From Clostridiales bacterium (lineage in GTDB: Bacteria; Bacillota; Clostridia; Oscillospirales; CAG-272): a DNA stretch of 64,000 bases. The notes below the pieces were generated by a model, which saw nothing but the letters and a program-made list of their open reading frames with translations, was not told the origin of the DNA and searched no databases. Below, in pieces: positions 2,971 to 60,581 of this stretch; the first letter of the stretch is position 1; every line of letters begins with the position of its first letter. The stretch is taken from positions 66,299-130,298 of the forward strand of contig JAJQCT010000032.1 of assembly GCA_021202555.1 (NCBI GenBank). The letters run 5' to 3'. The position numbers and the translations under genes were made by a program.

Positions 2971-3099
2971 AAGGAGGAGAAAGTTTGAAAGATAAATCTT
3001 TCAAACTCCTCGTTTTGTGTCTTTCGTCGCACAAAAGGCAGTGCGACGAAAGACACAATTCCGAACGAAAGGAAGCTTTCGCTTACGCGAAAGTCATGG
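2971..3099 (+). repeat. type-3 modular hairpin leader, copy 1 (inverted partner at 11653-11802)
   Basis: Shares about 48 nt on the left (AAGTTTGAAAGATAAATCTTTCAAACTCC.CGTTTTGTGTC) and about 46 nt on the right (GACACAATTCCGAA.GAAAGGAAGCTTTCGC..ACGCGAAAGTCATGG) with the rarA-proximal copy. The central palindrome differs. Confidence 0.85.
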
Positions 3100-9327: not shown

Positions 9328-9484
9328 TATACCGACAACCTCCTTTTCTCTGCCCGCAAGGTAGCTTTCAAGCACATTACGCACGAAATATTCCTCCCTG
9401 CGTGCGCGTCGGACTATTCCGCTCCGCGGAATAGTCCCTACTTTCATTTCTTTGCTCGCTTTGCGGGCAAAGAAATGAATCGTT

Positions 9485-9835
9485 TGGAGGCGAGGGGAAT
9501 CGAACCCCTGTCCGAAAATCTCTCCCTGTGAATTTCTCCGGGCGCATGGCACCGAAAATCTCCCGCCGAGGCACACGATGCCCAAAGCACCTCGGGGAAA
9601 GCGCTTTAATGCGTGACCGCTTCAAGCGCGAAACGGCGGTTCACGTTCACCACAGTCGTGACGCCCGATATGAGGTCGTGGTCCCCCTCATAAAGGACGC
9701 GCCGCACTTAGGCAGCGAGTGCTAATTCTTCGTCGTTAGCAGTTAAAGTTTTAATTGGAGCCGTATTTAAGAACTTGCCCCATGCTCTGCCCGCTTATCA
9801 CCTATCAAAATCCCCGTCGAAACCTTTACGCCCCC
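9485..9835 (-). ncRNA. ssrA: tmRNA (SsrA), tag reading frame ANDEELALAA-stop
   Basis: 5' GGGGGCGTAAAGGTTTCGACGGGG. 3' tRNA-like end GGGGTTCGATTCCCCTCGCCTCCA. Tag GCTAACGACGAAGAATTAGCACTCGCTGCCTAA on the complement of 9708-9740. Lies 7 nt downstream of smpB. Confidence 0.93.
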
Positions 9836-11656: not shown

Positions 11657-11802
11657 GACTTTCGCGTCAGCGAAAGCTTCCTTTCATTCGGAATTGTGTC
11701 CGATTCCGCTTTGCGGAATCGCTACGTTCCGCGCAGCGGAATCGTTTGCGAAGGACACAAAACGTGGAGTTTGAAAGATTTATCTTTCAAACTTTCCCTC
11801 CT
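11653..11802 (-). repeat. type-3 modular hairpin leader, copy 2, ending at the rarA start codon
   Basis: Its reverse complement matches 2971-3099 in both flanks. The core holds two TTCCGC-N3/4-GCGGAATCG hairpins enclosed by GTGTCC/GGACAC. Confidence 0.85.
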
Positions 11803-18311: not shown

Positions 18312-19190
18312 TTAATCCAAAATGTCCGTCCCGCAGATTTTCGTGAGCAGCGCCTTGAGGTCCTCATTGTCCTCAAATCCGATGCTCACATATTTTGTCC
18401 TTCCGCCCGCCTTAATCGTGACGGGGCGTCCGAGCGCGTTCTGCGCCGCTGCCGCTGCCGCCGCCGCATAATCAATACCGCCGACCGGCTCGCTCTGTGT
18501 CTCCCTTTTCTGTGCGTTCATCCGCTTCGCCTGTCGCTCCGCCTCGCGCACCGACATTCCCTCCGCGATGATTCTGTCTGCAAGAACGCTTATATCGTCC
18601 TTGTTTTTGAGCGAAAGCAGCGCCCTCGCGTGTCCCGCCGTAATCTCGCCGCTTTTGAGAAACGGAATTATTGCCGCGGGCAAATCAAGAAGCCGCAGAC
18701 TGTTCGCGACAGCGGAGCGCGAGCGCCCGATTTTCTCCGAAAGCTCCTCCTGCGTGAATCCGAACCGCTCAATCAGAAGCTTGTACGCCTCCGCCTCCTC
18801 GTAGGGATTGAGGTCTTCGCGCTGAATATTTTCAATAAGCGATATTTCCGCCGTCAGAACCTCGTCGGGCTGCATTATCATCGCGGGAATTTCGGAAAGC
18901 CCTGCCGCCTTTGATGCGCGCCAGCGCCGCTCGCCCGCGATTATGACGTATCGTCCGTCCTCGCCCTCGTAGACTAAAATCGGCTGAAGCACGCCGTAGC
19001 GCGAAATCGAATCTGAAAGCGCCGCGAGCGCTTCGTCGTCGAAGCTCTTTCGCGGCTGATCGCGGCGCGGCTCGACCATTGAAATATCAAGCTTATATAT
19101 TCTGCCCTCATCGGGCGAGGAGGGGTCATATGATGTGTTATCAAGGAAGATTGAATCTATTCCCCGTCCGAGAGAGGGTTTTTTCGACAT
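18312..19190 (-). CDS. spo0J: ParB/Spo0J chromosome partitioning protein
   Basis: ParB box GERRWRAS. HTH QEELSEKIGRSRSAVANSLRLL. Confidence 0.93.
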   Translation of the reverse strand: MSKKPSLGRGIDSIFLDNTSYDPSSPDEGRIYKLDISMVEPRRDQPRKSFDDEALAALSDSISRYGVLQPILVYEGEDGRYVIIAGERRWRASKAAGLSEIPAMIMQPDEVLTAEISLIENIQREDLNPYEEAEAYKLLIERFGFTQEELSEKIGRSRSAVANSLRLLDLPAAIIPFLKSGEITAGHARALLSLKNKDDISVLADRIIAEGMSVREAERQAKRMNAQKRETQSEPVGGIDYAAAAAAAAQNALGRPVTIKAGGRTKYVSIGFEDNEDLKALLTKICGTDILD

Positions 19191-19232: not shown

Positions 19233-19997
19233 TTACTTAATCCGCGCTATAAGCTCGTCAGTCACGTCGAGATAGCACTGCGTGCCCTTTGAGGTCTTGT
19301 CATGATATATTATCGGCTCGCCGAAGCTCGGCGCCTCGGAAAGCTTGACATTGCGCACAATCTGCGTTCTGAAAAGCTGATCGGCGTAATATTTCTTCAG
19401 CTCGCCGACAACCTGCGTCGTCAGATTCAGGCGCGGATTATACATCGTAAGAAGAATTCCCGTAATCTCAAGCTTGCGGTTATAAAGCTGCTTGATTTTG
19501 CGAATCGTGAGCATAAGCTGCGAAAGTCCCTCAAGCGCGTAATATTCGCACTGCATGGGAATCAGCACGCCGTTTGAAGCTGCAAGCGAATTTATCGTCA
19601 GAAGCCCGAGCGACGGCGGGCAGTCGATGACCATCACATCATAATTATCGGAAACGTCCGCAATCACGTTTTTCAGGCGATACTGCCTGTCGGGAAGGTC
19701 TGATAAGTCAAATTCCGACGCCGCAAGCGATATTGTCGCAGGAATCACGTCAAGGCGCTCGAACTTTGTATGCGCTATAACCTCAGAGGCTGTTTTCTGC
19801 CCGAGCAGAAGCTCGTACATGGACGATTTAAGTCCGCGCTTTGAAATCCCAACTCCGCTCGTCGAGTTGCCCTGCGGGTCTGCGTCAAGCAGCAGCACAC
19901 GCCGCCCGCGATACGCAAGGCAAGCGGCGATATTGACGGCAGACGTCGTTTTGCCGACGCCGCCCTTCTGATTTGCGAATGAAATAATGTAAGACAT
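19233..19997 (-). CDS. soj: ParA/Soj partitioning ATPase
   Basis: Deviant Walker A KGGVGKTT. Start set at MSYIISFANQ, which has a GGGAG RBS. Confidence 0.93.
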   Translation of the reverse strand: MSYIISFANQKGGVGKTTSAVNIAACLAYRGRRVLLLDADPQGNSTSGVGISKRGLKSSMYELLLGQKTASEVIAHTKFERLDVIPATISLAASEFDLSDLPDRQYRLKNVIADVSDNYDVMVIDCPPSLGLLTINSLAASNGVLIPMQCEYYALEGLSQLMLTIRKIKQLYNRKLEITGILLTMYNPRLNLTTQVVGELKKYYADQLFRTQIVRNVKLSEAPSFGEPIIYHDKTSKGTQCYLDVTDELIARIK

Positions 19998-20144
19998 AGA
20001 CGCTCCCGCAAAAATCGGCACAGCCAAAGGTAATTATACATATTATAATCGCACGGCGGCGTTTTGTCAAGCCCCGAGCGAAAGTTTCCGCCCCACGCAA
20101 AAAAATTTACTTTTGCATATAGCGTGGAATGGCGCTCCGCCGAC

Positions 20145-20160
20145 TGTTTCACGTGAAACA
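20145..20160. promoter_or_regulatory. parS site (perfect TGTTTCACGTGAAACA)
   Basis: Lies between noc and soj. Confidence 0.85.
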
Positions 20161-20185: not shown

Positions 20186-21028
20186 TCATGCCGAACATTC
20201 GTTCTTTCTTTTGCAGTCAATTGAGACGACGATAGTCACAACACCCTCATTTTCGCGCTTTTCGACCTCGACTGGAACGCCGCCGCCGCGAAGTGTCTCG
20301 GCGGCATGGTCGATGGCGTTATAAAAAAGGCGAAGGTCTTTTATCGCGTATTTCTGGCGCTGGCGGCAGACGCCGCGCGAGTTATCTACCATATTAGATA
20401 ACAGTCCGTCAACGTATCTTTCGGATGATGATACGTTGAGCTTTCGCTTTATAATATGTAAAAGCGCGCTTTTCCTCGCCCCCTCGTCGCGAAGGCGCAG
20501 AAGCGTCCTCGCATGGCGCTCCGTCAGCCCGTTTTCGAGAATGAGCGCCCGCTCCTCATCCGAAAAGCGCAGCATACGAAGCTTGTTCGCAATATAGGGC
20601 TGGCTCACAGAAAGCCTCGCCGCCGCCTGCTCCTGCGTCATCCTATAAAGGAAGATAAGCGATGAAATCGCCGCCGCCTCCTCAAACATATTCAGATCCT
20701 CCCGCTGCAAATTCTCGATAATCGCGAGCGCCGCGGACTCCTCCTCCCCCGCGTCCATCATAATGCACGGCACCGTCAGAAATCCCGCGAGCCTCGCCGC
20801 CTGCCACCGCCTCTCACCGGCGATAATTTCATAAGACCCCGTCCCGTTTCGCCTGACGGTGAGCGGCTGCAAAATCCCGTAGCGCCTGATTGATTCTGAA
20901 AGCGCCTTCAGTTTCCCCTTGTCAAAGACCTTTCTTGGCTGGCGCGGATTCGGCACAAGCGCCTCAACCGGCACCTCAATTGTCGCGCCTCCTACGGCTG
21001 CGGCATAATCAACATACTTTTCGTTCAT
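20186..21028 (-). CDS. noc: ParB-family nucleoid occlusion protein
   Basis: ParB box GERRWQAARLAG. Second ParB paralogue upstream of soj-spo0J. Start set at MNEKYV, which has a GGGAG RBS. Confidence 0.8.
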   Translation of the reverse strand: MNEKYVDYAAAVGGATIEVPVEALVPNPRQPRKVFDKGKLKALSESIRRYGILQPLTVRRNGTGSYEIIAGERRWQAARLAGFLTVPCIMMDAGEEESAALAIIENLQREDLNMFEEAAAISSLIFLYRMTQEQAAARLSVSQPYIANKLRMLRFSDEERALILENGLTERHARTLLRLRDEGARKSALLHIIKRKLNVSSSERYVDGLLSNMVDNSRGVCRQRQKYAIKDLRLFYNAIDHAAETLRGGGVPVEVEKRENEGVVTIVVSIDCKRKNECSA

Positions 21029-21325
21029 ATCAAATCTCCCTTTCTTTTGTCGGGTGATACCCCGAAATTCACTCACAGCGAGTATATCAATATGATAAAG
21101 CACGACCGGGCGAAAAAACGGGCGAGACACGGTGTTTGAAAATAAAAGTTACGGGAAATGTATCGGGGATTCTGCGGGGATATGTTATAGCCGAAAATTT
21201 AAGCGGGAGATTTGCAAAGAGGTGAAATTGCGTGTTGATTTTGGAGCAAAAGTGTGTTATTATTTAGTCAGATGAGACGTTTTGCGCGACGGCGCAGAAA
21301 AATTTAATTAAAGAGGAGAAATTAC

Positions 21326-23638: not shown

Positions 23639-24631
23639 ATGAAGAAGATTATTTTGACGGCAGTAGCGCTCATGCTCGCTTTGTCAATGCTCGCGCTCCC
23701 CTCATGCACGACGGAGGGAGAAGGTGACGACACCGACGCGGCGGGTACAAATTCGTCGGACACGACGTCAGGAAATGTAAGCTCGGGCGACACAACGTCT
23801 GACAGCGACGGAAACGACGACAGCACGGCAACATCGTCGCGCTACACAAACTTTGACCTGCGCACTGATTACGACGAGGATGAGGCAGTGACGGTCGTAT
23901 TCACCGACGAGGCGATAACGCTCTCGGGAAATGACACGTCGGGCGCGACGGTGGACGGCACGACGCTGACGATAACGGCTGAGGGAACGTATGTGATTTC
24001 AGGCTCATGCAGCGACGGACAGATTATCGTCGAGGTATCGGACACCGAAAAGGTTCAGCTTGTATTTAACGGAATTTCGCTCATGTGCAAGACGAGCGCT
24101 CCCGTATGGGTAAAGTGTGCCGACAAAACGTCGATAACGCTCGCTGACGGCACGACGAACACAATGCAGGACGCAGCGTCGTACACCGACGTAAACACTG
24201 ACGGCGAGCCGAACGCCTGCATTTTCTCAAAGGACGACCTGACAATCAACGGCACGGGAACACTCAACGTCTACGCGAACTGCAACAACGGAATAACCTC
24301 AAAGGATGACCTCAAGATTATAAGCGGCATAATCACAGTAACGGCTGAAAATCACGGCATTCGCGGAAATGACAGCGTTACAATAAAGGACGGCACAATT
24401 TCGGTTTCATGCGGAAACGACGGCATCAAGGCGTCGAACACGACGAAATCAGACAAGGGCTATATCTACATTGAGGGCGGCACAATTACAATCGACTGCG
24501 GCGACGACGCGCTTCAGGCAATAACGTCAATCGACGTGACGGGCGGCTCGATTACAGTCTCCGCCGCGGGTGATGTCACAAACTGCGAGGGCACGGTAAA
24601 TCTCGCCGACGGCTGCGTAACGGAGCAGTAA
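23639..24631 (+). CDS. lipoprotein with Cthe_2159-like beta-helix carbohydrate-binding domain
   Basis: Lipobox LALPSC. Ser/Thr/Asp linker. Repeated G(I/D)..(K/N)D.(L/V).I..G motifs. Confidence 0.55.
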   Translation: MKKIILTAVALMLALSMLALPSCTTEGEGDDTDAAGTNSSDTTSGNVSSGDTTSDSDGNDDSTATSSRYTNFDLRTDYDEDEAVTVVFTDEAITLSGNDTSGATVDGTTLTITAEGTYVISGSCSDGQIIVEVSDTEKVQLVFNGISLMCKTSAPVWVKCADKTSITLADGTTNTMQDAASYTDVNTDGEPNACIFSKDDLTINGTGTLNVYANCNNGITSKDDLKIISGIITVTAENHGIRGNDSVTIKDGTISVSCGNDGIKASNTTKSDKGYIYIEGGTITIDCGDDALQAITSIDVTGGSITVSAAGDVTNCEGTVNLADGCVTEQ

Positions 24632-24635
24632 TTGA

Positions 24636-24914
24636 GTGAAATCGAGACGGTTGACATCGGTCAACCGTCTCGGATAAATCCGCGCTTCGCGCGGGTAAAA
24701 TCCGTCGCTGACGCGACGGGTTAATGAAAAAAGCCACCTCAACGCTTCGCTTTTGAGATGACTTTTATTCAATTAAAAGTCCGTAGGACTTTTTACCTTA
24801 ACCCGCACAAAGTGCGGATTTCACCGAGTATTCGCCGCAGGCGGATGCTCGATTTCACCTGCCCGAAGGGCAGATTTCACCGTCTCAAAAGCTTTGCTTT
24901 TGAGACGATTTAAC
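24636..24914. repeat. type-1 hairpin array A (9 hairpins on GTGAAATC / GATTTCACC linkers)
   Basis: Linkers at 24636, 24673 and 24695 (GTGAAATC-type) and at 24818, 24851, 24873 and 24907 (GATTTCACC-type). Parsed by hand. Confidence 0.85.
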
Positions 24915-27814: not shown

Positions 27815-28681
27815 ATGAAAAATTCAATGCGCAAATCAGCCGCTGTGTTGATTGTGACGGCACTTATTGCCACACTGCTGTCCTCATGCACGGAAACGAC
27901 GCAATACCCTTTGATTTCCGATTACGAATACTGCGTCGTTTTTCTCAACATCGGCTACGGCGACTGCACAATAATAAAGGCGGGCGGCGACTATTACATG
28001 ATTGACACCGCATCCGCCGACCATGCGCGCGATGTGACGTCATTTCTTGCGGCGGAGGGAATCACGGAGCTGGCAGGGCTGTTCCTCACGCACACGGACA
28101 GCGACCATACGGGCGGGCTGTTCTACGTCTCCGACGTCGTGAAAATCGACTGTATTTACTATCCCTACTATTCCGAGCCTGATGACAAGGGTCAGAATCA
28201 GCTTGAAATGAAGGCGGAAAGCCTCGGCGTTGAGCATTCGGCGCTTTCGGGCGGCGACACTGTTGAAACAGATAATATAACATTTGAAATTCTCGGTCCC
28301 ACGGAATATTACGAGTATGACGACAACGACAATTCGCTCGTCATTCGCGCAGAAATCGACGGAATAGTCTATCTTTTCGCGGGAGATATGCAGTTTTATG
28401 AGGAAAATCTCGTGCTTGCCTCGGGCGCGGACGTATCATGCGATGTGCTGAAGGTGGGCAATCACGGCAACCGTGACGCAACCTCGTCGGAATTTCTGTC
28501 GGCGGCATCGCCGTCAGTCGCGGTGATTTCCGCAAATACGACGGAAAAATCGACATCGGCGTCGCTGCGCGTCACAACCCTTCTCTCCTCCGTCTGCGAT
28601 TATTACGTCACCGAGGACTCGGAATATTGTATAATCACATACAAAAACGAAAGCGGAGAGATAATAGTTGAAGTTGATTGA
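27815..28681 (+). CDS. lipoprotein with ComEC-C-terminal-like metallo-beta-lactamase fold
   Basis: Lipobox LLSSC. HTDSDHTGG motif. NHGN later in the sequence. Confidence 0.65.
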   Translation: MKNSMRKSAAVLIVTALIATLLSSCTETTQYPLISDYEYCVVFLNIGYGDCTIIKAGGDYYMIDTASADHARDVTSFLAAEGITELAGLFLTHTDSDHTGGLFYVSDVVKIDCIYYPYYSEPDDKGQNQLEMKAESLGVEHSALSGGDTVETDNITFEILGPTEYYEYDDNDNSLVIRAEIDGIVYLFAGDMQFYEENLVLASGADVSCDVLKVGNHGNRDATSSEFLSAASPSVAVISANTTEKSTSASLRVTTLLSSVCDYYVTEDSEYCIITYKNESGEIIVEVD

Positions 28682-28719
28682 TTACTTAAGGGGGTATTTT
28701 TGCAAAAATACCCCCTTAA
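28650..28719 (+). repeat. direct repeat DR1 (last 10 codons of the MBL gene plus its terminator palindrome)
   Basis: AAAGCGGAGAGATAATAGTTGAAGTTGATTGATTACTTAAGGGGGTATTTTTGCAAAAATACCCCCTTAA. Repeated at 29284-29352. Confidence 0.9.
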
Positions 28720-28888: not shown

Positions 28889-29266
28889 ATGCGGACATTA
28901 GATGAATATATGGCTTTGCCGTACAAGATGGAAATCGTAGAGGACAAAGAAGACGGCGGATTCGTCGTTTCCTTCCCTGACCTTCCCGGATGCATTACCT
29001 GCGGCGATACAATAGAGCAAGCGCTGTCAAACGCGGAGGATGCGAAAAGGTCGTGGCTTGATGCAGCGCTTGAAGAAGGATACGCGATAAAAGACCCTCA
29101 GGGTCAGGAGGAATATTCGGGACAATTCAAATTGCGTATGCCGCGCAGCCTGCACAAAGCGTTATCGGAGCATTCAAAGCAAGAAGGAATTTCAATGAAT
29201 CAATATTGCGTTTATCTGCTTTCGCGAAACGACGCAATTAACACCGCAACAACAAAGCGAAGCTGA
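28889..29266 (+). CDS. hicB: HicB-family antitoxin (no HicA partner seen)
   Basis: YKMEIVEDKEDGGFVVSFPDLPGCITCGDTIEQALSNAEDA (HicB fold), plus a C-terminal RHH-like RMPRSLHKALSEHSKQEGISMNQY. Confidence 0.8.
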   Translation: MRTLDEYMALPYKMEIVEDKEDGGFVVSFPDLPGCITCGDTIEQALSNAEDAKRSWLDAALEEGYAIKDPQGQEEYSGQFKLRMPRSLHKALSEHSKQEGISMNQYCVYLLSRNDAINTATTKRS

Positions 29267-29283: not shown

Positions 29284-29352
29284 AAAGCGGAGAGACAATA
29301 GTTGAAGTTGATTGATTATTTAGGGGGTGCTTTTTCAAAAGCACCCCCTAAA
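29284..29352 (+). repeat. direct repeat DR2 (copy of DR1)
   Basis: AAAGCGGAGAGACAATAGTTGAAGTTGATTGATTATTTAGGGGGTGCTTTTTCAAAAGCACCCCCTAAA. The hairpin is kept by compensatory changes. Confidence 0.9.
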
Positions 29353-29362
29353 TAATTCCCTC

Positions 29363-33285: not shown

Positions 33286-33879
33286 TTAATAGGTAGCAGA
33301 GTTAATTCTCCAGATTGTTTCACCGTCGTCATCCTTTTCGCTTGTAATTGTTATCTCAATCACCTCGTCAGCCGTCCCGTCAAGATATGACTGCGCCGTG
33401 AATACGATAAAGCGCGAGGAAAGCGACGTAATCTCCACACTTTCAAGGTCATACGTCCTCTCGTAGCTTACAAGCACCTCCGCCTCCGTGTCAATATAAA
33501 GCCTGTCGCCGTATTCGTAATATCGCGCGTATATAATCGACCCCGTGTCGTCGTCACTGTAGCCCGTCAGATAAATATCGAATATCGACTCGCAGTAATC
33601 GGATGAAAAGACTGCCTCTGTCGCCGTGCGAAGCTCCTCCTCCGTCAGATACGGACTGTCGTCGGAAACGGGCATATATTTGCCCTCGCTCCCGTCGTCA
33701 ATATAGTCCATACCAACGCCAAAATAAATCTCGTTGAGAAGATATGTCCTCGGCAGAAGATTTTCGATAATACCAATCGCCTCGTCCTCCGTCGGCGCCG
33801 CCTCGCATGAAACAAATGAAATCGGAAGCACTGCCGCAAAAACAAGCGCCAAAGCAACAGACAGCGCCTTATTCCTCAT
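33286..33879 (-). CDS. hypothetical lipoprotein
   Basis: Lipobox ISFVSC. Start taken at MRNKALSV. Overlaps the gyrA 3' end by about 11 nt. Confidence 0.55.
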
Positions 33880-36427
33880 CCTCGCCCTCGTCAATTTCGT
33901 CCTCCTCGTATTCATCCGGGTCTATGTCACCGTCATCTGACGCACCGTCATCTGTCGTGACGTCTCCCGGCGTCTCCGTTTCCTCCGCCTCTGCTGCAAT
34001 CTGCGTAAACGACGCGACCCTCGCGCCCTCGCCCGTTTTCATCACGATAACGCCCGAAGCCGACCGTCCCATCACGCCGATTCCGCCGGCTGACGTTCTC
34101 ATTATGATTCCCGTGTCTGAAATAACGATAATGTCGTCCTCATCCGAGATCGAAGCGATTCCTATAAGCTTTCCCGTGCGGCTCGTGAGCTTATGCGAGA
34201 TAACGCCCAAGCCGCCGCGGTGCTTCGTGTCGTAATTTGAAAATTCCGTCCGCTTGCCAAGCCCCTTTTCCGTCAGGGTAAAGAGCGTCTTGCCCTCCTC
34301 GACGACGGCGGCGCCCGCTACGTGCTCGCCATCTGAAAGCTTGATTGCGCGCACGCCCATCGCGGTGCGTCCCTGCGGTCGAATCGTGCGCTCCGCAAAT
34401 CTCACGGCGCGTCCGTTTTCACCTGCGACGATAATTTCGCGCTCTCCGTCCGTTACCTTGACGAAAATAAGCTCGTCGTCGCCCTCAAACGAAATCGCGC
34501 GCTTGCCGCCGCGCCTCTGATACTCAAATTCCGTGAGCGGCGTGCGCTTGATTTTGCCGTTTTTCGTCACCATCGTGAGATAAAGCCCCTTCACGAAGCC
34601 GTCAACGGCTACAATCGCCGTGAGCTTCTCGCCCGGCTCCGTCTCGATGATGTTCGCGATGTTCGTTCCCTTTGAGGTGCGCCCCGCCTCGGGTATCTGA
34701 TACGCCTTTTTCATGTAGACGCGCCCTTTGTCGGTGAACATCAGAATATAGCTGTGGCTGTCAACGGAGATAACGCGCTCGATGAAATCCTCCTCGCTCT
34801 TCGTCGTGCCGATAATGCCCTTGCCGCCGCGCCGCTGCGCCGAATATACGTCGGAGCGCTGACGCTTTACATATCCCTCGTGCGTAATCGTGATAATGCA
34901 GTTGTGGCGGTCGATTAAATCCTCAATCATAATCTCGTTTTCGACAGGAACAATCTCCGTGCGCCTTGCGTCCGCGTATTTCTGCTTTATCGCGAGCATT
35001 TCCTCCTTGATAAGCGCCTTCAGCTTCTCCTCGTCGGAGAGAATGCCGACAAGCCGCTCGATTTCCTCGTAAAGCGCCGCGAGCCGCGCCTCGATTTTCT
35101 CGCGCTCAAGACCCGAAAGCCGCCCGAGCGTCATTTCAACAATCGCCTGCGTCTGAACGTCGTCAAGCCCGAATCTCGCGCCGAGCTTTGCCTTCGCGTC
35201 GGGAATCGATGCCGAGCCCTTGATTATCTCGATTACCTCGTCGATATTGTCAATCGCAATCTTGTAGCCCTCGTAAATATGCGCCTCGCGCCTTGCCTTT
35301 TCAAGCTCAAACTTGAGACGGCGCGTGACGACCTCCTCCTGATGGCGTATATGCTCGCCGAGCATATCGCGAAGGGAGCAGGTTTTCGGCTCCCCGCCTA
35401 CAAGAGCTACCATGTTGACTGCAAACGTGTCCTGAAGCTGCGTATATTTGAAAAGCTGATTTAAAAGTATCTGCGGGTTCACATCGCGCCTGTATTCGAC
35501 GACGATTCTCATTCCGCCTCGCCCCGACTCGTCGCGAAGCCCCGTGATTCCGTCAACTCGCTTATCCTTTACAAGATTCGCAATCGATTCGACAAGAACG
35601 GATTTGTTGACGGCATACGGAATTTCCGTCGCGATGATTCTGCGGTGCTCCTCGTCAATCTCCGTTTTTGAGCGCACGGTGATATGACCCTTTCCCGTCA
35701 TATACGCCTCGTAAATGCCCGCCGTGCCGTATATAGTCGCTCCCGTCGGGAAATCGGGACCCTTTATATAGCGCATAAGCTCATCAAGCGTCGCCTCGGG
35801 ATTGTCCATCATGTAAATTTCCGCGTCGATTGCCTCGCCGAGGTTGTGCGGCGGAATATTTGTAGCCATACCGACAGCAATTCCGACGGAGCCGTTGACG
35901 AGCAGATTCGGTATTCTCGACGGCAAAACGACAGGCTCCTTCAGCCTGTTGTCAAAGTTCGGTCTGAAATCGACGACATCCTTTTCAATGTCCGCCATCA
36001 TCTCGTTGGCGATTTTTGACATTCTCGCCTCCGTGTAACGGTAAGCAGCGGGCGGGTCGCCGTCAACGGAGCCGAAGTTGCCGTTTCCGTCAATCAAGGG
36101 ATAGCGGTATGAGAACGGCTGCGCCATTCTCACCATCGCCTGATAGACGGAGGAATCTCCGTGCGGATGATACCGACCGAGAACATTACCGACCGTCGTC
36201 GCCGATTTGCGGTACGCCTTGTCGTATGTCAGCCTGTCCTCGTACATCGCGTAAAGTATTCGCCTCTGCGACGGCTTCATTCCGTCCCTTATATCGGGAA
36301 GCGCGCGCGCCGTGATTACCGACATCGAATACGCGATGAAGGATTTTTTTACTTCATCGTGCATTCCGACGTCAATAATCTTCTGGTCGGGAAACTCTAT
36401 ATCCTTTATCTCTTCCTCATGCTTCAT
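33869..36427 (-). CDS. gyrA: DNA gyrase subunit A
   Basis: [25 protein letters not shown]; catalytic Tyr in AAYRYTE. Acidic tail. Confidence 0.97.
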
Positions 36428-36473
36428 AAATATCAATCATTCCTTTTGCAAGTATTATATAGGGCAGTGAATC

Positions 36474-36553
36474 GTGAATATTTTTCACCAATCTATGATT
36501 TGGTGAAAAATATTCACCAACTTTAAGAATGAATCTACGATTCATTCTTAAAG

Positions 36554-36555
<2 letters not shown>
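36474..36555. repeat. type-2 double nested palindrome, copy a (right arm overlaps the gyrB stop codon)
   Basis: GTGAATATTTTTCACCAATC-tat-GATTTGGTGAAAAATATTCAC, then AACTTTAAGAATGAATC-tac-GATTCATTCTTAAAGTT. Confidence 0.85.
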
Positions 36556-38581
<2,026 letters not shown>

Positions 38582-39981: not shown

Positions 39982-40021
39982 CTGTCATTTCTTTTTGTAT
40001 CTTCATTTTCCTCACTTACAG

Positions 40022-40380
40022 GTTTGAAATCTTCACTTCCATCGCTATCCGACTTTATAGCTTGAAAGATTCCATCTTTCAAGCTGTGAAGTCGATAGGT
40101 TGCAAGTTTGAAATTTTTCAAACTTGCAATCCTGTATAGTCGTCAGGTTTGAAAGATGGAAAAATTTATTTTTCCGTCTTTCAAATCCTATGCTGTCGGT
40201 TCCGCGAAGCGGAATCGCCGTCTTACTTTCTGACGGCGAAGACAGCAGCGAATCAACCGCCTATTCAACCTTTGCTGTTGTTTCCGCGAAGCGGAATCGT
40301 CGTCTTACTTTTTGACGACGAAAACAGCAAAGTTGACAGTTTTGTAATTTTGAAAAATTCTTTTTCAAAATTACAAAACT
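40022..40380. repeat. about 360-bp field of nested hairpins between recF and dnaN, including a tandem pair of three-way-junction-like units
   Basis: Hairpins at 40059-40085, 40100-40129, 40146-40188 and 40338-40380. Units at 40192-40246 and 40274-40328. All parsed by hand. Confidence 0.85.
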
Positions 40381-41527: not shown

Positions 41528-42049
41528 CCTCTTTCCTCTCCTCCCACAGTAAGCTTCACAGCCTGCGATTCGCAGCTTTTTTCACCCCTGTGGAAAATTT
41601 TTTGTCCGAGCGCGAACGCGCCCACAATATAATATATTATATATATCAGCAGCCGCAGCAGTAGGCTCTGTGGAAAATGCGGAAAACTCGCCGCAGCCCT
41701 TTTATTTGCTCAATTTTCCGACCGCAAATCATGTTGAAAACAGCCGGCAAATCATGTTGACGCCCAAAAGCTTATCAACAGCCCCCGAAAAATCCCGCTC
41801 AGCTGCCGCTGTGCCACCGCTGTCAAATTTAAGCCTTGACTTCCACAAAAAGGGACGAAAATCGGCTGATTTTTGTCTTATCAACAGCCCCCGGCGAAAT
41901 TTGCCGACAGGAAATTTTCGTGTTATGGCGGGAATTTCCGAAGTCTTCGTGAGCTGTAAACCCGATTTTGCGGCAGGTTTTCCACAGACTTTTCCACAGA
42001 CTGTGGAAAAGTCGGGCGATAAAATGCCTTCGCAGACGCCCCCAAGCGG
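41528..42049. other. oriC (dnaA-dnaN spacer): DnaA-box cluster plus AT-rich unwinding element
   Basis: TTTTCCACA/TGTGGAAAA at 41589, 41669, 41978, 41990 and 42002. TTATCAACA at 41772 and 41878. A weaker ACTTCCACA at 41839. Confidence 0.8.
41626..41646. other. candidate DNA unwinding element (21 consecutive A/T)
   Basis: AATATAATATATTATATATAT, flanked by DnaA boxes at 41589 and 41669. Confidence 0.6.
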
Positions 42050-43450
42050 TCAGATTTCAATATCGTTCAGAAGATCGTTTATCTCAACCGCGAAGGCTGG
42101 ATTCGATTCGATTTCGCGGTCGATTACGCCGATTGATGAAACTATCGTCGAGTGGTCGCGCCCGAATATCTTCCCGATGGCGGGCAGTGAAAGCTCCGTC
42201 TTTTTCCGAAGCACATATACGGCGATATGACGCGCCCATGAAATATTTTTCATTCTGCTCTTGCCGATAATATCCTTCGATTCGACGCCGTAGCGGGAGC
42301 TTACCTCGGAGAGCACGCGCTCCACCTTAGCCTCCGTCGGCACCTCCTCGGGAATCACGTCCGCAATGCATCTTGCCGCCATGTCAAGCGTAACGGGACC
42401 GCCTGAGACAAAGCTCGTCGCCGAAAGGCGCTTGAGCGTCCCTTCAATCTGCCGCACGTTGCTTTTCAGCTTATCCGCCAAAAATCCGACGACATCGGAT
42501 GAAAGTGAAAGCGACATCGCCTCCGCCTTTTTCTTTATAATCGCCGCGCGAAGCTCGGGGTCGGGCGGCTGAATGTCAGCTATAAGCCCCCATTCGCACC
42601 TCGTCTTGATTCTGTCCTCGAGGAGCTTTATGTCGCGCGCCGGTCTGTCGCTTGTGAAAATTATCTGCTTATGCGCGTCGTAAAGCGTATTGAAGGTGTG
42701 AAACAGCTCCTCCTGCGTCGAGGTCTTGCCCGCTACAAACTGCACGTCGTCAATCAGCAGCACATCAGCCCGCCTGAATTTCTCGCGGAAGGTCTGCGTG
42801 CTTCTCTCCGAAATCGCCGCTATAAGCTGATTTGTGAAATCCTCGCATTTCGTGTAAACGACGTTGAGCGTTGGATTTTTGCGCTTCAGCTCGTTTGTGA
42901 CGGCGTACATCAGATGCGTCTTTCCAAGCCCGCTGTGACCGTAAATGAAAAGCGGATTGTATACAGACCCCGGCGTGTTCGCGACCGCAAGACAGGCAGC
43001 GTGAGCGAATTTGTTTGAATCCCCGACTATGAAATTTTCAAACGTGTACTCTGTGTGGAAAACGAAATCCTCTGTCCCAGATGTCATCGCAGATGTCATC
43101 TGGGTTGACATCTGTGCCGAGGCGGCGGCATCCTTCTGAAAGGAGGCGGGAACTGTTCCCATTCCGATTCCCGTCGGCGTGCGCGCCCTTTCAAGCGAGC
43201 GGACGGTGACGAAGCAGCGCTTGTTCGTCGTGAGCGAGAACAGCTCCTCCAGCAGCCGCTTATAATTCCTGCTTACAATATCAGCCTTGAAATCCGCGCC
43301 GACTGTAACCTCGGCGAAAAGATCGCCACTCTGCTCCTTGAGCGAGGAAAGCTCCATATCAGCAAACCAAAGCCCGTATGTCGAATCAGAGAACTGCCGC
43401 CGCAGCTCGTTTTTAACGGTCGTCACCGTTTCCGATAAATCATAGTTCAA
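42050..43450 (-). CDS. dnaA: chromosomal replication initiator DnaA (TTG start)
   Basis: Walker A GHSGLGKTHL. Walker B LLIDDVQF. C-terminal DnaA signature HSTIVSSI. Confidence 0.97.
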   Translation of the reverse strand: MNYDLSETVTTVKNELRRQFSDSTYGLWFADMELSSLKEQSGDLFAEVTVGADFKADIVSRNYKRLLEELFSLTTNKRCFVTVRSLERARTPTGIGMGTVPASFQKDAAASAQMSTQMTSAMTSGTEDFVFHTEYTFENFIVGDSNKFAHAACLAVANTPGSVYNPLFIYGHSGLGKTHLMYAVTNELKRKNPTLNVVYTKCEDFTNQLIAAISERSTQTFREKFRRADVLLIDDVQFVAGKTSTQEELFHTFNTLYDAHKQIIFTSDRPARDIKLLEDRIKTRCEWGLIADIQPPDPELRAAIIKKKAEAMSLSLSSDVVGFLADKLKSNVRQIEGTLKRLSATSFVSGGPVTLDMAARCIADVIPEEVPTEAKVERVLSEVSSRYGVESKDIIGKSRMKNISWARHIAVYVLRKKTELSLPAIGKIFGRDHSTIVSSIGVIDREIESNPAFAVEINDLLNDIEI

Positions 43451-43504
43451 AATATCATACCCTTACCGTATTTTTTATTTAAGCGCAATGCGCGAATATT
43501 CAAC

Positions 43505-43544
43505 AGACTTGAAGAATAAGGCTGTGCCTTATTCTTCAAAGTCT
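43505..43544. repeat. type-2-related hairpin AGAC-TTGAAGAATAAGGC-tgt-GCCTTATTCTTCAA-aGTCT
   Basis: Same frame (ACAGAC TTGA..GC tgt GC..TCAA .GTCT) as 52414-52456. Preceded by AATATTCAAC. Confidence 0.7.
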
Positions 43545-43654
43545 TACCCTTATATTATACCATAAACTCTTCTGTAAGTCAAGAGTTAATATGAAAACAA
43601 TGCCGAAAACGGCGCCGAAATATCGGCACACAAAAGGGCTTCTATTCGTCAAAA

Positions 43655-44736: not shown

Positions 44737-46263
44737 TTGAAAACAAAGGAATTTCGCGTGCGCGCGTATATCGCGTTTATTTTGTGCGCGGTTATGATAT
44801 TAGCCTGCTCTTTTACAACATCTGTTTTTGCCGATGACACAGCTTCAGACGTCACGTCTGAAGCTGACGAGACGTCAGAAGCTGACGAAACTGATACCGA
44901 AACGGAGCTGACGGAGATAACAATCGAGGAGGAGGATTCGAGCTTTTCGATTCTCGACATTCTCTATATCCCGATGGGCTTCATCATGCGCGTATGCTAC
45001 AGCATAACGAACAATTACGCTTTCGCGCTTCTGCTTTTCGCGCTTGTAATGCAGCTCATTTTGCTCCCGCTCGGGGTAAGACAGCAAAAGGGAATGATAA
45101 AGCAGGCGTCGCTTCGCCCGAAGGAAAGCGCGATTCGCAAGAAGTACGCGGGGCGCACCGATCAGGCGACGCAGAAGAAGATGAACGACGAGCTGATGGC
45201 GCTCTATCAGGCGGAAAATTACAATCCCGCGAGCGGATGTCTGCCACTTCTCATTCAGCTTCCGATAATTCTTGCGCTTTTCACAGTTGTGCGTCAGCCG
45301 CTCACGTATATAACGCGGCTTGACGAGGGAGTTATCGACGCGCTCAAATCCGCAGTCGAGCAGCTTGGCGGCACTCTTACGACCTCATACGAGGAAATAA
45401 GCGTTATCACCTTCATACGCGACAACGGGCTTGACGGAATCCGCTCGATAATAACGAATTTCGACGAGCTTTCGGGAATCACGGATTCAACCGTTTTCCC
45501 CGATTTCACGATGTTCGGAGTATTTGACCTGTCCGTTATACCGTCAAGTCAGTTCATACCGTATATTCTCGTTCCTATACTGACGGGAGCGGTCATGCTC
45601 ATAACGACGAAGCTTCAGCGGAAATTCACCTATCAGTCCGAGGCGACGATGGACGCGCAGAATCAGTCCTCGATGAAGATAATGATGTGGATTTCGCCTC
45701 TCATGTGTGCGTATTTTGCCTACATTGTCCCGTCCGCCATCGGCGTATACTGGATTTGGCGAAATCTGCTCTCATTTTTGCAGCAGGTGATTCTCTCAAA
45801 GGTGATGCCGACGCCGAAATTTACAGAGGAGGAGCTTCTGGCGGCGGAGCGCGAATATCTCGGGAAAAAGCCCAAAAAGTCGGGCGCATCCGTAGAGGGC
45901 GGTCAGAAAAAGGTTTACGACGCAGACCATCCGCGTCCGCGCTCACTGCACCGAATTGATTTTGAGGACACAACACCGTTGGACGAGGACGTGTCGTCCT
46001 CGTCCAAGGTGGCGAAGACGGCGCAGCCGTCTTCGAGTAAAGATGCTTCGGGTGAGGAAAGCACGGATTCGTCAAAGACAGGCGAGGAAAGCGGAGGCGC
46101 GTCGGGCGGGCTGATTGAGGCGGCGCCGCTCAAGACTGACACCCGCTCCGACAAGGCGGCGGGAAGGAAAAAGAAAAAGCGCTCGGACGACAAAACAGAC
46201 GACAAAACAGAAGAGGAATCCGCAGCTGATGCGGAAAAAACGACAGAGAAAGAGAAGGATTGA
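44737..46263 (+). CDS. yidC: YidC/Oxa1-family membrane insertase with acidic N-terminal and long charged C-terminal extensions
   Basis: Core MQLILLPLGVRQQKGMIK...NPASGCLPLLIQLPI. TTG start with an AAAGGAG RBS. Confidence 0.88.
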   Translation: MKTKEFRVRAYIAFILCAVMILACSFTTSVFADDTASDVTSEADETSEADETDTETELTEITIEEEDSSFSILDILYIPMGFIMRVCYSITNNYAFALLLFALVMQLILLPLGVRQQKGMIKQASLRPKESAIRKKYAGRTDQATQKKMNDELMALYQAENYNPASGCLPLLIQLPIILALFTVVRQPLTYITRLDEGVIDALKSAVEQLGGTLTTSYEEISVITFIRDNGLDGIRSIITNFDELSGITDSTVFPDFTMFGVFDLSVIPSSQFIPYILVPILTGAVMLITTKLQRKFTYQSEATMDAQNQSSMKIMMWISPLMCAYFAYIVPSAIGVYWIWRNLLSFLQQVILSKVMPTPKFTEEELLAAEREYLGKKPKKSGASVEGGQKKVYDADHPRPRSLHRIDFEDTTPLDEDVSSSSKVAKTAQPSSSKDASGEESTDSSKTGEESGGASGGLIEAAPLKTDTRSDKAAGRKKKKRSDDKTDDKTEEESAADAEKTTEKEKD

Positions 46264-48603: not shown

Positions 48604-48632
48604 TTGAAAAAAAATTATTTTTGTGCTATAAT
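48604..48632 (+). promoter_or_regulatory. promoter TTGAAA-17-TATAAT
   Basis: Upstream of the CarD-like gene. Confidence 0.6.
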
Positions 48633-52340: not shown

Positions 52341-52374
52341 AAGTAGATTATATCATAAAAGTGCGCTAAACCGC

Positions 52375-52645
52375 AAATATTCAATGAAAAACATAGATTT
52401 TCATTGAATATTTGACAGACTTGACGATGCAAGCTGTGCTTGCATCGTCAATGTCTTGCGCTGTACCGTGAATATTGCGCTGCGCGCAATATTCATCAAC
52501 TTGCAGAATGAATCTGCGATTCATTCTGCAATGTTGTGTTATCATAAATTGAGCGGAAAACCGTGAATATTTTCCGCGAATCACAGATTCGCGGAAAATA
52601 TTCATCAACTTGAACAACAAAGCTATGCTTTGTTGTTCAATGTTG
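52375..52645. repeat. type-2 nested palindrome array (lead hairpins plus two full double units)
   Basis: Hairpins at 52375-52413 and 52417-52456. Units at 52468-52536 and 52563-52645. Confidence 0.85.
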
Positions 52646-52647
52646 TG

Positions 52648-52845
52648 TTAGTTTTGTTTCTGTACGCTTTTATATTCGTCATAGAAGCGGAAATACGGGC
52701 ATTCGCGCGAGCCGGCGCGTCCGACACGCTCCGATTCGTCCTCGTCAAGCGTAATCATGCATCCGTATTCCTCTGTTTCCTCATCAAAATCGTACCATTC
52801 GCAGTCCTCACAGCGAACTGTGCGTTTTTTCTTTTGCTTCACCAT
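52648..52845 (-). CDS. small acidic Cys-rich (zinc-ribbon-like) protein
   Basis: CEDCEWYDFDEETEEYGC ... RECPYF. GAGG RBS. Confidence 0.6.
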   Translation of the reverse strand: MVKQKKKRTVRCEDCEWYDFDEETEEYGCMITLDEDESERVGRAGSRECPYFRFYDEYKSVQKQN

Positions 52846-52944
52846 AAAAATCGCCTCGTTAAATTGAGTGTGTCGCAGTGAATATTTTACCTCACAAGAA
52901 CCGATTTGTCAATCGGCATTGTGTGAAATTTCGTGGCTATTAAA

Positions 52945-57614: not shown

Positions 57615-57629
57615 TGCTCATATTGAGCA

Positions 57630-57937
57630 GTGAAATCGCCGCTACGCGGCGGATAAATCCGCACTTCGTGCGGGTGAAATCACAGCAAATGCAAAGCATT
57701 TGCTGTGGTGAAATCCGTCGCTTTAGCGACGGGTTAAAGAAGCCTCTTAAAAGCTTTGCTTTTAAGAGGCAGTTTAATTTAATAGTCTTTTCAAAGTCTA
57801 TGCTTTGAAAAGACTTCATAAACCGCTGCGAAGCAGCGATTTCACCCTGCCTGTGCGATAGCACGGGCAGGATTTAACCCGACCGTAAGGTCGGATTTCA
57901 CCCCGCGGGAGCTTTTATGGCTCCCGCGGGATTTCAC
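57630..57937. repeat. type-1 hairpin array B (10 hairpins on GTGAAATC / GATTTCACC linkers)
   Basis: Linkers at 57630, 57652, 57674 and 57708 (GTGAAATC-type) and at 57839, 57871, 57894 and 57931 (GATTTCACC-type). Confidence 0.9.
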
Positions 57938-58995
57938 TTAATGTATGTAATATATCTGTCGCTGATTTTCGCGGTATTTTCATCGCCCTCGAAGAATATA
58001 ATTCTGTACTTATATTCAAGGCGACCGCCTGCGGGAATTTCAAGTCCGCCGCGGAAATAAAGGTTATTCGCAGCGAAAAGCCCGTAATTTCTTATGTGCC
58101 ACGTCGTCGGGAATCTCTCGTTTTTCGGGTTGTCGAACACTGCGATGCCGACGGGGTGTCCCGAAAGCTCGCCGCCGTAAATAGAGTAGTTCGCCGCGCG
58201 ACCCCAGCATTCCTCCTCGCCTGTGGCGCCGTATGAGTTTTTCATGTACCCGCCGCGCTCGACGCGAAGCGGATCGGCAACTCTCACGCCGAGAGGTCCC
58301 GCCTCCTTTGTCGCGCCGAAGGTGAGCTTGCCGTATGACGCCGTGAACGCGAGCGTCACGTCAACAGTCCTTGTCTTGTGCGGCTGCGAATATACGGTGA
58401 AGGAGGATTCCGCGTCCGCCATAGGCTCGCCGTCGTGCGAGGTCCATACGGTTTCGGCATTTACCCTCATCTGCCCGCCGCCTGCCGAAACTGATGCGGA
58501 TTTATGTTTCTGAATGCCGCAGTTTAGAGGCTCATTCCAGAAATCGACGTGCTGCGCGCCGCCCTCAAGCGACACGTCGCCGACGCCGAAAAATACAGAG
58601 CGATGATGCGGATGCTCCGTCGCCTCAAAATCAAGGCGCGTGTAGCTCTCGCCGAATGAGGTCATGACGGGTCCGAAATATGGCTTATAAAATTTGTCGG
58701 AATATACGTATTCCGCAAACTTTTTCCCGCCGATATGAAACCTGAATCGCTTGTCCGCCGCCTCGATTTTCATGTCGTACTTTGGCGCCGTTTGCTCGCC
58801 GGTCAATGTGAGTGTATGCTCGCCCGCGCCGAATGTGCCTACGAAATGAAGCTCCCCGTCACGGTATGCGGCGGAGAGCGCCCTGCCGTCCTCGGTGATG
58901 ACGCTCCCGAACTCAAAATCGGGCGCTTCCTTTAATCTGAGCGCTATCGGCTCATCCTCGACGCTGCGCGTCAGCCTGAATTTTGCCTCTTTCAT
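57934..58995 (-). CDS. PmoA-like / DUF6807-family protein
   Basis: HPHHRSVFFGVGDV....VDFWNE motif typical of the family as I recall it. Confidence 0.6.
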   Translation of the reverse strand: MKEAKFRLTRSVEDEPIALRLKEAPDFEFGSVITEDGRALSAAYRDGELHFVGTFGAGEHTLTLTGEQTAPKYDMKIEAADKRFRFHIGGKKFAEYVYSDKFYKPYFGPVMTSFGESYTRLDFEATEHPHHRSVFFGVGDVSLEGGAQHVDFWNEPLNCGIQKHKSASVSAGGGQMRVNAETVWTSHDGEPMADAESSFTVYSQPHKTRTVDVTLAFTASYGKLTFGATKEAGPLGVRVADPLRVERGGYMKNSYGATGEEECWGRAANYSIYGGELSGHPVGIAVFDNPKNERFPTTWHIRNYGLFAANNLYFRGGLEIPAGGRLEYKYRIIFFEGDENTAKISDRYITYIK

Positions 58996-60394: not shown

Positions 60395-60483
60395 CAAATC
60401 ACCTCCTTTGCTTCGGCTACGTATATGATACCACATTGTAAAGCAAAAGTCAACATCTATCTTTACGGCTTTCAAAAAATTTT

Positions 60484-60581
60484 CGTGAAAAATTTCAGCA
60501 CACCGTGCCATGCACGGTGTGCGGGTGAAAGCTTTTGAAGATTTTCTTGAATGGGGCTTGGGGCAAAGCCCCAATTTCAGC
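60484..60581. repeat. mini type-1-like hairpin cluster
   Basis: GTGAAAAATTTCA, then GCACACCGTGC-cat-GCACGGTGTGC, then GGGTGAAAGC, then TGGGGCTT-ggggca-AAGCCCCA-ATTTCAGC. The esterase stop TGA is the complement of 60577-60579, inside ATTTCA. Confidence 0.6.

Follow-up and report, generated by a model that had tools for sequence, protein, structure and literature searches.

The closest described relatives of the repeats considered here are the repetitive extragenic palindromes (REPs) and bacterial interspersed mosaic elements (BIMEs) of Enterobacteria and Pseudomonas: short palindromic units outside genes, arranged in clusters of variable number with conserved linker motifs, lying between co-directional genes and near gene ends, likely transcribed within mRNAs, and present or absent from strain to strain. 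We find these same traits in a family of paired hairpins located in the gyrB–gyrA spacer, and at further intergenic sites, of a 64,000-nucleotide stretch of DNA (‘the window’) that covers the replication-origin region of a Firmicutes/Clostridia-like genome (GC ~52%). On balance, we take them to be a lineage-restricted family of modular, extragenic, REP/BIME-like palindromic DNA repeats, the arms of whose hairpins probably evolve in concert by template switching. Comparison of strains within a single species shows gain and loss of units, their multiplication in tandem and their exchange between loci, and repeated inversion of the hairpin loops.

The likeness to REP and BIME elements is nevertheless partial. 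A GTAG/CGTC tag at the foot of the hairpin is a REP feature (PMC3733652); there is none in the 20 units that we have aligned, whose hairpin feet all read ..ACC-GTGAATATT, ..ACC-GCAAATATT, CAACTTG or ACAGACTTG. REPs are small extragenic palindromes of high copy number; our units are extragenic and repeated, a covariance model built from the 20 aligned ones (R1) giving five in the window and 4–8 per 20 kb in nine sister strains in a survey of ~90 kb around oriC. Inverted REP doublets (REPINs) fold as one hairpin, whereas here two different and mutually non-complementary hairpins fold separately, with stem interiors that are highly diverse within one genome; nor is a REP-associated tyrosine transposase (RAYT) present among 40 open reading frames (ORFs) of the window. 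As in BIMEs, units cluster in variable number—0, 1 or 3 in the spacer between a Mur-ligase gene and a DUF6472 gene, 1–2 at gyr and 1–2 at dnaA—and share a linker or leader (GCGCTGTACC or TTAT..AACC); unlike the alternating orientation of BIMEs, all units in every array point the same way, head-to-tail. REP and BIME elements are, in addition, found mainly in Proteobacteria, and the host here belongs to an uncultured Firmicutes/Clostridia-like lineage.

A second point of comparison is provided by the palindrome-associated transposable elements (PATEs), ends-only derivatives of IS200/IS605, which share with our units the lack of terminal inverted repeats and of clear target duplication, subterminal hairpins with an extrahelical T, and a very small size that would favour single-strand mobility. 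The Correia/NEMIS and RUP miniature inverted-repeat transposable elements (MITEs) are likewise ~100 bp long, intergenic and strain-polymorphic, and alter promoters and mRNA 5′ ends; they have long terminal inverted repeats, however, which are lacking here, and TA duplications, of which our units show no clear sign, and we reject a MITE of the Correia, RUP or Nezha type on the lack of terminal inverted repeats (compared without gaps, the first and last 30 nt agree at 13/30 positions at best). Finally, the changes seen within the stems resemble template-switch mutations and hairpin-loop micro-inversions, with their one-step compensations, perfect stems and homoplastic loop inversions (PMC8794818; for small inversions in plastids, PMC6824564), but here they involve a whole repeat family, far denser than reported for bacterial intergenic DNA, and extend to coding tracts (yidC). 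We read the family as new: nearest in kind to REP/BIME mosaics and ends-only IS200/IS605 derivatives, it departs from each in the features that define them.

Architecture and covariation of the unit

The 20 aligned units, taken from the window and its sister strains (alignment A2), share an architecture of ~85–115 bp, non-coding and intergenic, in which a leader is followed by hairpin 1, a linker of 1–3 nt and hairpin 2. The leader reads TTAT(N ~10)RGYGCTRWACC and is shortened within arrays to the GCGCTGTACC form. Hairpin 1 has an outer stem of (G)TGAATATT/AATATTCA(Y), or of CAAATATT/AATATTTG in what we term B-type units; working from its base upwards, xxAATATT/AATATTxx gives way to ~7 variable bp and then to AATC/GATT enclosing a 3-nt loop, a short form (GCGC-tgc-GCGC) also being found. 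Hairpin 2 rises from a base of ACTTG/CAAtGT that carries a bulged T, through a variable middle, to a conserved C:G closing pair. The conserved parts of the stems are therefore their base and tip (AATC-nnn-GATT, AAGC-tRt-GCTT), with 6–8 bp of mid-stem varying between them. An earlier reading of the same DNA (the original prediction) had placed the hypervariability in the apices; in hairpin 1 the four apex-proximal pairs are in fact invariant (pairs 27–30 with 34–38), and it is the mid-stem that varies.

Pairing is retained in 97.2% of the 679 stem cells of the alignment, as compared with 78% in shuffles and 37–46% in slid controls. Both partners have changed at 23 of the 37 pairs, giving 132 double-change cells where 43 are expected in shuffles and 4–15 in slid controls. 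The mismatches that do occur are G·T in six cells, C·A in five and of other types in 14; since both wobble tolerance and strand asymmetry are lacking, this points to stems that are maintained by Watson-Crick pairing at the level of the DNA, and not by selection on RNA.

Within the window, R1 gives exactly five strong matches (48–101 bits), with everything else at or below 43 bits. Three of these contain the copies of the original prediction (36474–36555, 52468–52536 and 52563–52645), which read just as it had described them; their conserved-base framework, GTGAATATT-N(0-30)-AATATTCAY, occurs at three sites in the window and in none of 100 dinucleotide shuffles. The other two units (c4 and c5) and a remnant take the membership beyond those three copies; this is a genuine repeat family. 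Palindromes are abundant more generally, a census of perfect hairpins in the window finding 44 with stems of at least 9 bp and 33 with at least 12 bp, against 2.25 and 0.05 in shuffles; about half of the 44 have 3-nt loops.

Unit c1 (36464–36560, + strand; 85.1 bits) lies in the gyrB–gyrA spacer behind a short leader (..CAGTGAATC). Its hairpin 1 (36474–36517) consists of GTGAATATT + TTTCACCAATC tat GATTtGGTGAAA + AATATTCAC, and its hairpin 2 (36519–36555) of AACTT + TAAGAATGAATC tac GATTCATTCTTA + AAGTT, the last arm, as had been noted, overlapping the gyrB stop codon (TTA at 36554–36556 on the + strand), which it does by 2 nt. Folded as single-stranded DNA, c1 forms two adjacent, independent hairpins at −31.6 kcal/mol (z = −13). 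The inserts had been called perfectly self-complementary; the interiors are indeed self-complementary, with variation far beyond chance, whereas perfection fails in the right arm of the gyr hairpin 1, which has one extra T. A literal scan for the proposed hairpin 2 pattern, CAACTT-N-AAGTTG, has no match on account of the bulged T, the true right base being CAAtGTTG or AAGTT.

Three further units form a tandem array in the Mur-ligase/DUF6472 spacer. The first, c4 (52348–52457, + strand; also delimited as 52363–52460; 100.8 bits), is of B-type and has TTATATCATAAAAGTGCGCTAAACC as its leader, a hairpin 1 at 52374–52414 (CAAATATT..AATATTTG, with a 7-nt loop) and a hairpin 2 at 52415–52457 (ACAGACTTG..CAATGTCTT). 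It is followed by c2 (52458–52538, + strand; 64.3 bits), which begins with the linker GCGCTGTACC and carries the short form of hairpin 1 (52468–52496; insert GCGC tgc GCGC) and a hairpin 2 at 52497–52536, and then by c3 (52539–52647, + strand; 100.8 bits; leader TTATCATAAATTGAGCGGAAAACC), with hairpins at 52563–52605 and 52606–52645 and an end that falls 2 nt short of the DUF6472 stop codon (52648–52650). Upstream of the start of that gene a half-unit remnant (52855–52886, + strand) retains a leader-like AAATTGAGTGTGTCGCA plus GTGAATATT, without a right arm. The lowest-scoring of the five, c5 (43483–43548, + strand; 48.4 bits), sits just upstream of dnaA; its hairpin 1 is short and degenerate (GCGC aat GCGC + GAATATTCA), and its hairpin 2 (43505–43544) reads AGACTTG + AAGAATAAGGC tgt GCCTTATTCTT + CAAaGTCT.

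Turnover among strains and reach of the family

For comparison we retrieved the same region from nine distinct strains by exact look-ups of GyrB relatives and of the 44-amino-acid L34 protein; the corresponding look-up of GyrA returned an identical strain alone. Identity of gyrB is 95–99% among these sister strains and 85% to a sister species. The original prediction had proposed that orthologous loci in close strains be compared for turnover, and this is rapid: at least five intergenic sites near oriC hold 0–3 units each, being empty in some strains and filled in others.

The gyr spacer, whose flanks (including the gyrA leader) are conserved between strains, holds one or two units depending on the strain, with two in tandem in L034. 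In its hairpin 1, four strains carry TTTCAC(C/T/A)AATC and five carry GCGC-tgc-GCGC, whilst the sister species has GCGAATC-aca-GATTCGC, an apex identical to that of unit c3 in the window. Hairpin 2 is missing in L003 and L030; the window and L034 have it in a simple, perfect form, and in six strains it contains a nested 44-nt hairpin, ‘E’ (GACTTCCATTGTGAATC-nnn-GATTCACAATGGAATGTC), which takes the place of 5–6 variable nt of the left arm and lies 8 nt 5′ of the loop. The dnaA leader varies from 114 to 344 nt with one or two units, and L035 has a second copy of E there, this time in hairpin 1, where it occupies the left arm at the same distance of 8 nt 5′ of the loop.

Hairpin E of the gyr spacer is where four independent short-read (Logan) contigs break off (L005 at 12079, L006 at 5414, L037 at 1 and L038 at 1). 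Breakage of short-read assemblies by such repeats is a practical problem, and because of it metagenome-assembled genomes (MAGs) of this lineage probably under-represent the palindromic repeats.

At carD four leaders are empty (those of the window, L030, L035 and L036), whilst five strains have a filled one; the filled units have the opposite genomic orientation and lie directly after the −10 box, with 5–7 nt replaced relative to the empty sites and no duplication. The Mur-ligase/DUF6472 spacer measures 23 nt in four strains, holding one unit in L034 and three in the window and in L033; TTA stands at both junctions, reflecting either a 2–3 bp duplication or coincidence. Upstream of DUF6472, where the window has its remnant, sister strains have one to three full B-type units.

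Alleles of the hairpins also recur between loci. The GCGCtgcGCGC allele is found at three of them, and hairpin 2 of the dnaA unit in the window resembles that of the Mur locus in another strain; identical alleles at different loci argue for conversion or replacement between paralogous units, and much of what had looked like new inserts at a locus is the reuse of alleles from elsewhere. The same dnaA hairpin 2 differs from its L033 (L004) allele at 5 of 8 middle bp, both being perfect. Loops that are exact reverse complements of each other occur at no fewer than eight orthologous hairpins (tat/ata, aaa/ttt, tac/gta, aca/tgt, gca/tgc, tgt/aca), and for two hairpins 20 nt apart in the gyr spacer the strains show (aaa,aca), (aaa,tgt) and (ttt,aca), three orientation combinations out of a possible four, which implies that loop flips are recurrent.

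The units also have a consistent orientation: wherever it can be read without ambiguity, which is at five loci, they are antisense to local transcription. Since this holds even for the Mur operon, transcribed head-on to replication, transcription rather than replication predicts the orientation. Read in its own direction a unit has a U-rich tail after hairpin 2 and passes a loose terminator filter (TGTTGTGTTA follows hairpin 2 of c2 and c3 in the + orientation), and we see no convincing −35/−10 pair that would serve as a promoter for it; on the sense strand no T-run or U-tract follows the hairpins. Purifying selection against insertions that place the U-rich tail in the sense direction would be the simplest explanation.

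Several units abut predicted promoters. At dnaA (TTGACT-17-TGnTATAAT, 43554–43582, − strand) and at carD (48604–48632) the predicted transcription start is only a few nt from the point where the complement of hairpin 2 begins; c5 adjoins the predicted dnaA promoter directly on its downstream side, so that a dnaA mRNA would have the complement of the c5 hairpin 2 at its 5′ end. In the gyrA and Mur cases a TATAAT box borders on the complement of the leader or is provided by it. Judged from these positions, units immediately after or before −10 boxes would reshape the promoters and mRNA 5′ ends of dnaA, carD, gyrA and the Mur ligase, and might in this way modulate the expression of replication genes differently between strains.

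An exact-pattern scan of 185,579 species-representative genomes did not find it, giving one match, in Mucilaginibacter, that we judge to be chance, and a pattern scan of JGI metagenomes gave 23 matches, all AT-rich with non-palindromic inserts and likewise judged to be chance. The next GyrB relatives beyond ‘Firmicutes bacterium’ MAGs are 76% identical; in this nearest other genus R1 finds no unit, and 22 kb contain no long hairpins. With only chance matches in reference genomes and metagenomes and none in the next genus, we regard the family as lineage-specific. The Mucilaginibacter oryzae match (L001, 6585–6630) consists of one 16-bp hairpin, TGAATATTCAATTTAA..TTAAATTGAATATTCA, with CAACTT after it and no hairpin 2; it is probably a coincidence.

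Readings of the family

It has been documented (PMC8794818) that one template-switching event can create a perfect stem, a multi-base compensation or a loop inversion, and the loop inversions and one-step compensations described above match those footprints. We suggest that the concerted evolution of the two arms takes place in the DNA itself, replication template switching (‘quasi-palindrome correction’) copying one arm of a hairpin onto the other; this would yield one-step compensated changes, loop flips and regenerated perfect palindromes, whilst short-patch conversion between paralogous units may shuffle the hairpin alleles. The invariant base and apex would further imply a protein that reads the hairpin, be it a transposase, a nuclease or a host factor.

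Saying this, several points weigh against such an account. Template switching is read from patterns rather than observed, and a purely mutational model leaves the conserved base and apex unexplained. The antisense rule is also compatible with a role at the RNA level. All strong copies seen lie within ~9 kb of oriC, with a single diverged copy ~25 kb away (some 5 kb past the right end of the window), and R1 finds no units in the remaining ~44 kb of the window, nor in those sister loci that span this part; since the copies cluster at the origin, a local, origin-linked function is possible. Pfam scans of the 40 window ORFs, with relaxed thresholds for eight unknown ones, detect no transposase, integrase, Y1_Tnp or HUH protein, the sole weak match being RecX-like and adjoining recA.

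Were the template-switch account of a REP/BIME-like family correct, natural near-identical strains would show perfect hairpins being made, kept perfect and reshuffled in bacterial DNA, with one-step compensations, loop inversions, nested hairpins and gain and loss of units beside the essential genes dnaA, gyrBA and carD. The template-switch model of stem evolution would become directly testable in a bacterium, and a REP/BIME-like family would be added to a phylum in which such elements are poorly described.

A broader proposal, which we hold only tentatively, is that of a dedicated or unusually active DNA-hairpin process by which the arms of hundreds of intergenic palindromes, and of some coding ones too, are constantly re-copied onto each other, loops behave in a switch-like manner, and modules are inserted hairpin-in-hairpin at a fixed distance from the loop, as with E at the gyr and dnaA loci. 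Behind it could stand an unrecognised enzyme specific for hairpins of single-stranded DNA, or else nucleases that suppress palindromes could have been lost, and 5′-terminal stem-loops on key mRNAs (dnaA, carD) would be a by-product. For template switching itself yidC (44737–46263) is of note: it holds perfect palindromes of 10–13 bp at 44840–44866, 45979–46007 and 46013–46035, in acidic or serine-rich tracts at the N- and C-termini of the protein (GACGAGGACG tgt CGTCCTCGTC encodes DED-V-SSS), and YidC varies from 455 to 543 amino acids among sister strains. Perfect palindromes in such low-complexity coding tracts suggest that template switching of this kind operates across the whole genome in this lineage.

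It is also possible, if doubtful, that the units are miniature single-stranded DNA transposons—ends-only IS200/IS605 elements (PATEs) or REP/RAYT-like elements, with hairpins 1 and 2 as left and right ends bound by a Y1 HUH transposase encoded elsewhere. The traits of such families are given in PMC7290912. Speaking for this reading are two subterminal hairpins with a conserved bulged T in the second, the chance-level similarity of the termini (13/30 matches), filled and empty Mur sites that are clean but for, at most, the TTA ambiguity, head-to-tail tandem insertions, and module E at an equal loop distance in two different hairpins. Set against them, no Y1/HUH gene, TnpA included, is present in the window, and the hairpins have different frameworks, with stems that are unconserved between copies and, unusually for transposase-bound ends, very diverse within one genome. 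PATEs have a replication-biased orientation, whereas that of our units tracks transcription, the Mur units lying opposite to the lagging-strand prediction. Filling of the carD site is a 5–7 nt replacement and not a clean insertion, and in place of the fixed tetra- or pentanucleotide target of PATEs no conserved tetranucleotide can be derived from our three sites, where the left flanks pass from ..GTAGA into TTAT, from ..TTTTTA into TATG and from ..AAGTA into TTAT.

That the units act as structured RNA within mRNAs, a 5′-terminal or intercistronic pair of stem-loops that stabilises or processes transcripts (by blocking RNase J or as a site for RNase III) and is selected for RNA pairing, we consider unlikely. 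Stems of 18–20 bp suffice as RNase III substrates; the transcript strand has a fold of −46.5 kcal/mol (z = −8.6), and both the single orientation with respect to transcription in all unambiguous copies and the closeness of the hairpin 2 complement to the predicted start sites of dnaA and carD would fit. Copies are nonetheless present or absent at essential genes between near-identical strains, G·U is no commoner than C·A or other mismatches, loops invert freely, and placement is heterogeneous (3′ of gyrB, 5′ of dnaA, 5′ of carD, and between operon genes). Rfam likewise provides no match for the elements: with release 15 only the tmRNA and one tRNA reach the gathering threshold across the whole window, and permissive scans of the elements return nothing beyond sub-threshold, miRNA-like hairpin noise.

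The mechanism favoured by the original prediction, in which a hairpin-handling enzyme adds palindromic DNA at the symmetry centre of GTGAATATTCAC and of CAACTTG/CAAGTTG to create hypervariable apices, now appears very unlikely. It would account for the AATATT that borders every hairpin 1 insert as if a palindromic target had been duplicated, for the CAACTTG of L003 that lacks the hairpin 2 insert present in other strains, and for the pair of dnaA hairpin 2 alleles (window and L033 (L004)) that are both perfect despite differing at most of their middle bp. No empty GTGAATATTCAC, however, even allowing one mismatch, exists in 370 kb of population sequence, so there is no evidence of inserts entering the centre of this 12-bp palindrome; the bases nearest the apex are the conserved part; recurrence of insert alleles across loci fits conversion or replacement and not de novo synthesis; and the single clear case of added palindromic material, hairpin E, sits in an arm rather than at the centre.

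More improbable still are structure-specific DNA sites for protein binding or recombination, whether attC-like, Xer-like or targets of origin-proximal nucleoid proteins. Integron attC sites combine a conserved base, an extrahelical base and a variable terminal structure in which folding is conserved, and the base and extrahelical T of our unit resemble this; the clustering of copies around oriC would also fit. The attC R boxes (RYYYAAC/GTTRRRY) are unmatched, though, the left base being CATCAAC (with GTTGTGT) in A-type units and AGAC/GTCT in B-type units. The unit here is a double hairpin plus leader, the window has neither an integrase nor a cassette array or cassette organisation, and variable occupancy between strains argues against an essential site of chromosome organisation. 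Ordinary intrinsic terminators that share a few bases by chance are scarcely credible, since, even though hairpin 2 of c2 and c3 passes the loose filter in the + orientation, this orientation is antisense to every flanking gene, the sense strand has no U-tract, copies stand in the 5′ leaders of dnaA and carD, a single framework match was seen in 0 of 100 shuffles, and the 20-unit alignment has a shared leader, two frameworks and a shared linker.

Neighbouring genes and other palindromes

The genes around these units divide by strand. On the minus strand lie gyrA (33869–36427), gyrB (36554–38566) and dnaA (42050–43450), together with remA, recF and dnaN; rpmH, rnpA, yidD, yidC, jag, trmE and carD follow on the plus strand from 43884.

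Other hairpins are found in the same region. A different family occupies 24630–24910, 57620–57940 and 60480–60540, where runs of GTGAAATC / GATAAATC / GTAAAATC are each followed by a short GC-rich hairpin and the other side is a mirror image (the hairpin and then GATTTCAC); these build large, multi-branched inverted structures downstream of genes and have an AAATC/GATTT motif in common with the apices of our units. A third family fills almost the whole of the recF–dnaN spacer (39982–40378) with AG(T/C)TTGAAAGAT-nn-ATCTTTCAA(A/G)CT and TTGCAAGTTTGAAA.., recurring at 2982–3007 and 11768–11793; the spacer also has a direct repeat of ~55 nt containing TTCCGCGAAGCGGAA, and in L004 other hairpins stand at the same place.

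A hairpin of the form GGACTATTCCGC-nnn-GCGGAATAGTCC is found within 9402–9491, directly after the tmRNA gene (9484–9835, minus strand). In the sister strain L050 (2076–2158) this tmRNA-side hairpin is followed by a hairpin-2-like ACTTTGACC..GGTCAAtAGT with the identical bulged T, from which it follows that the hairpin 2 module combines with other partners. Direct repeats of ~70 nt (28650–28719 and 29285–29356), each ending in a perfect palindrome of 17–20 bp of GGGGGT type, flank a lone hicB antitoxin gene (28889–29266); hicB and its bracketing repeats look like a small inserted cassette, which the sister strain L004 has as well.

We also weighed two known kinds of site, a DnaA box for the leader of the unit and a parS-like site for hairpin 1, and rejected both, as the matches are too weak and inconsistent between copies. 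A perfect parS palindrome, TGTTTCACGTGAAACA, does lie at 20145–20160 within a longer 20-bp inverted repeat, between soj (19233–20027) and a second ParB/Noc-like gene (20186–21130), with spo0J at 18312–19190. Between dnaA and dnaN, DnaA-box-like repeats (TTTTCCACAG) in inverted arrangement cluster at 41972–42028 and are likely to represent the second half of a bipartite oriC.

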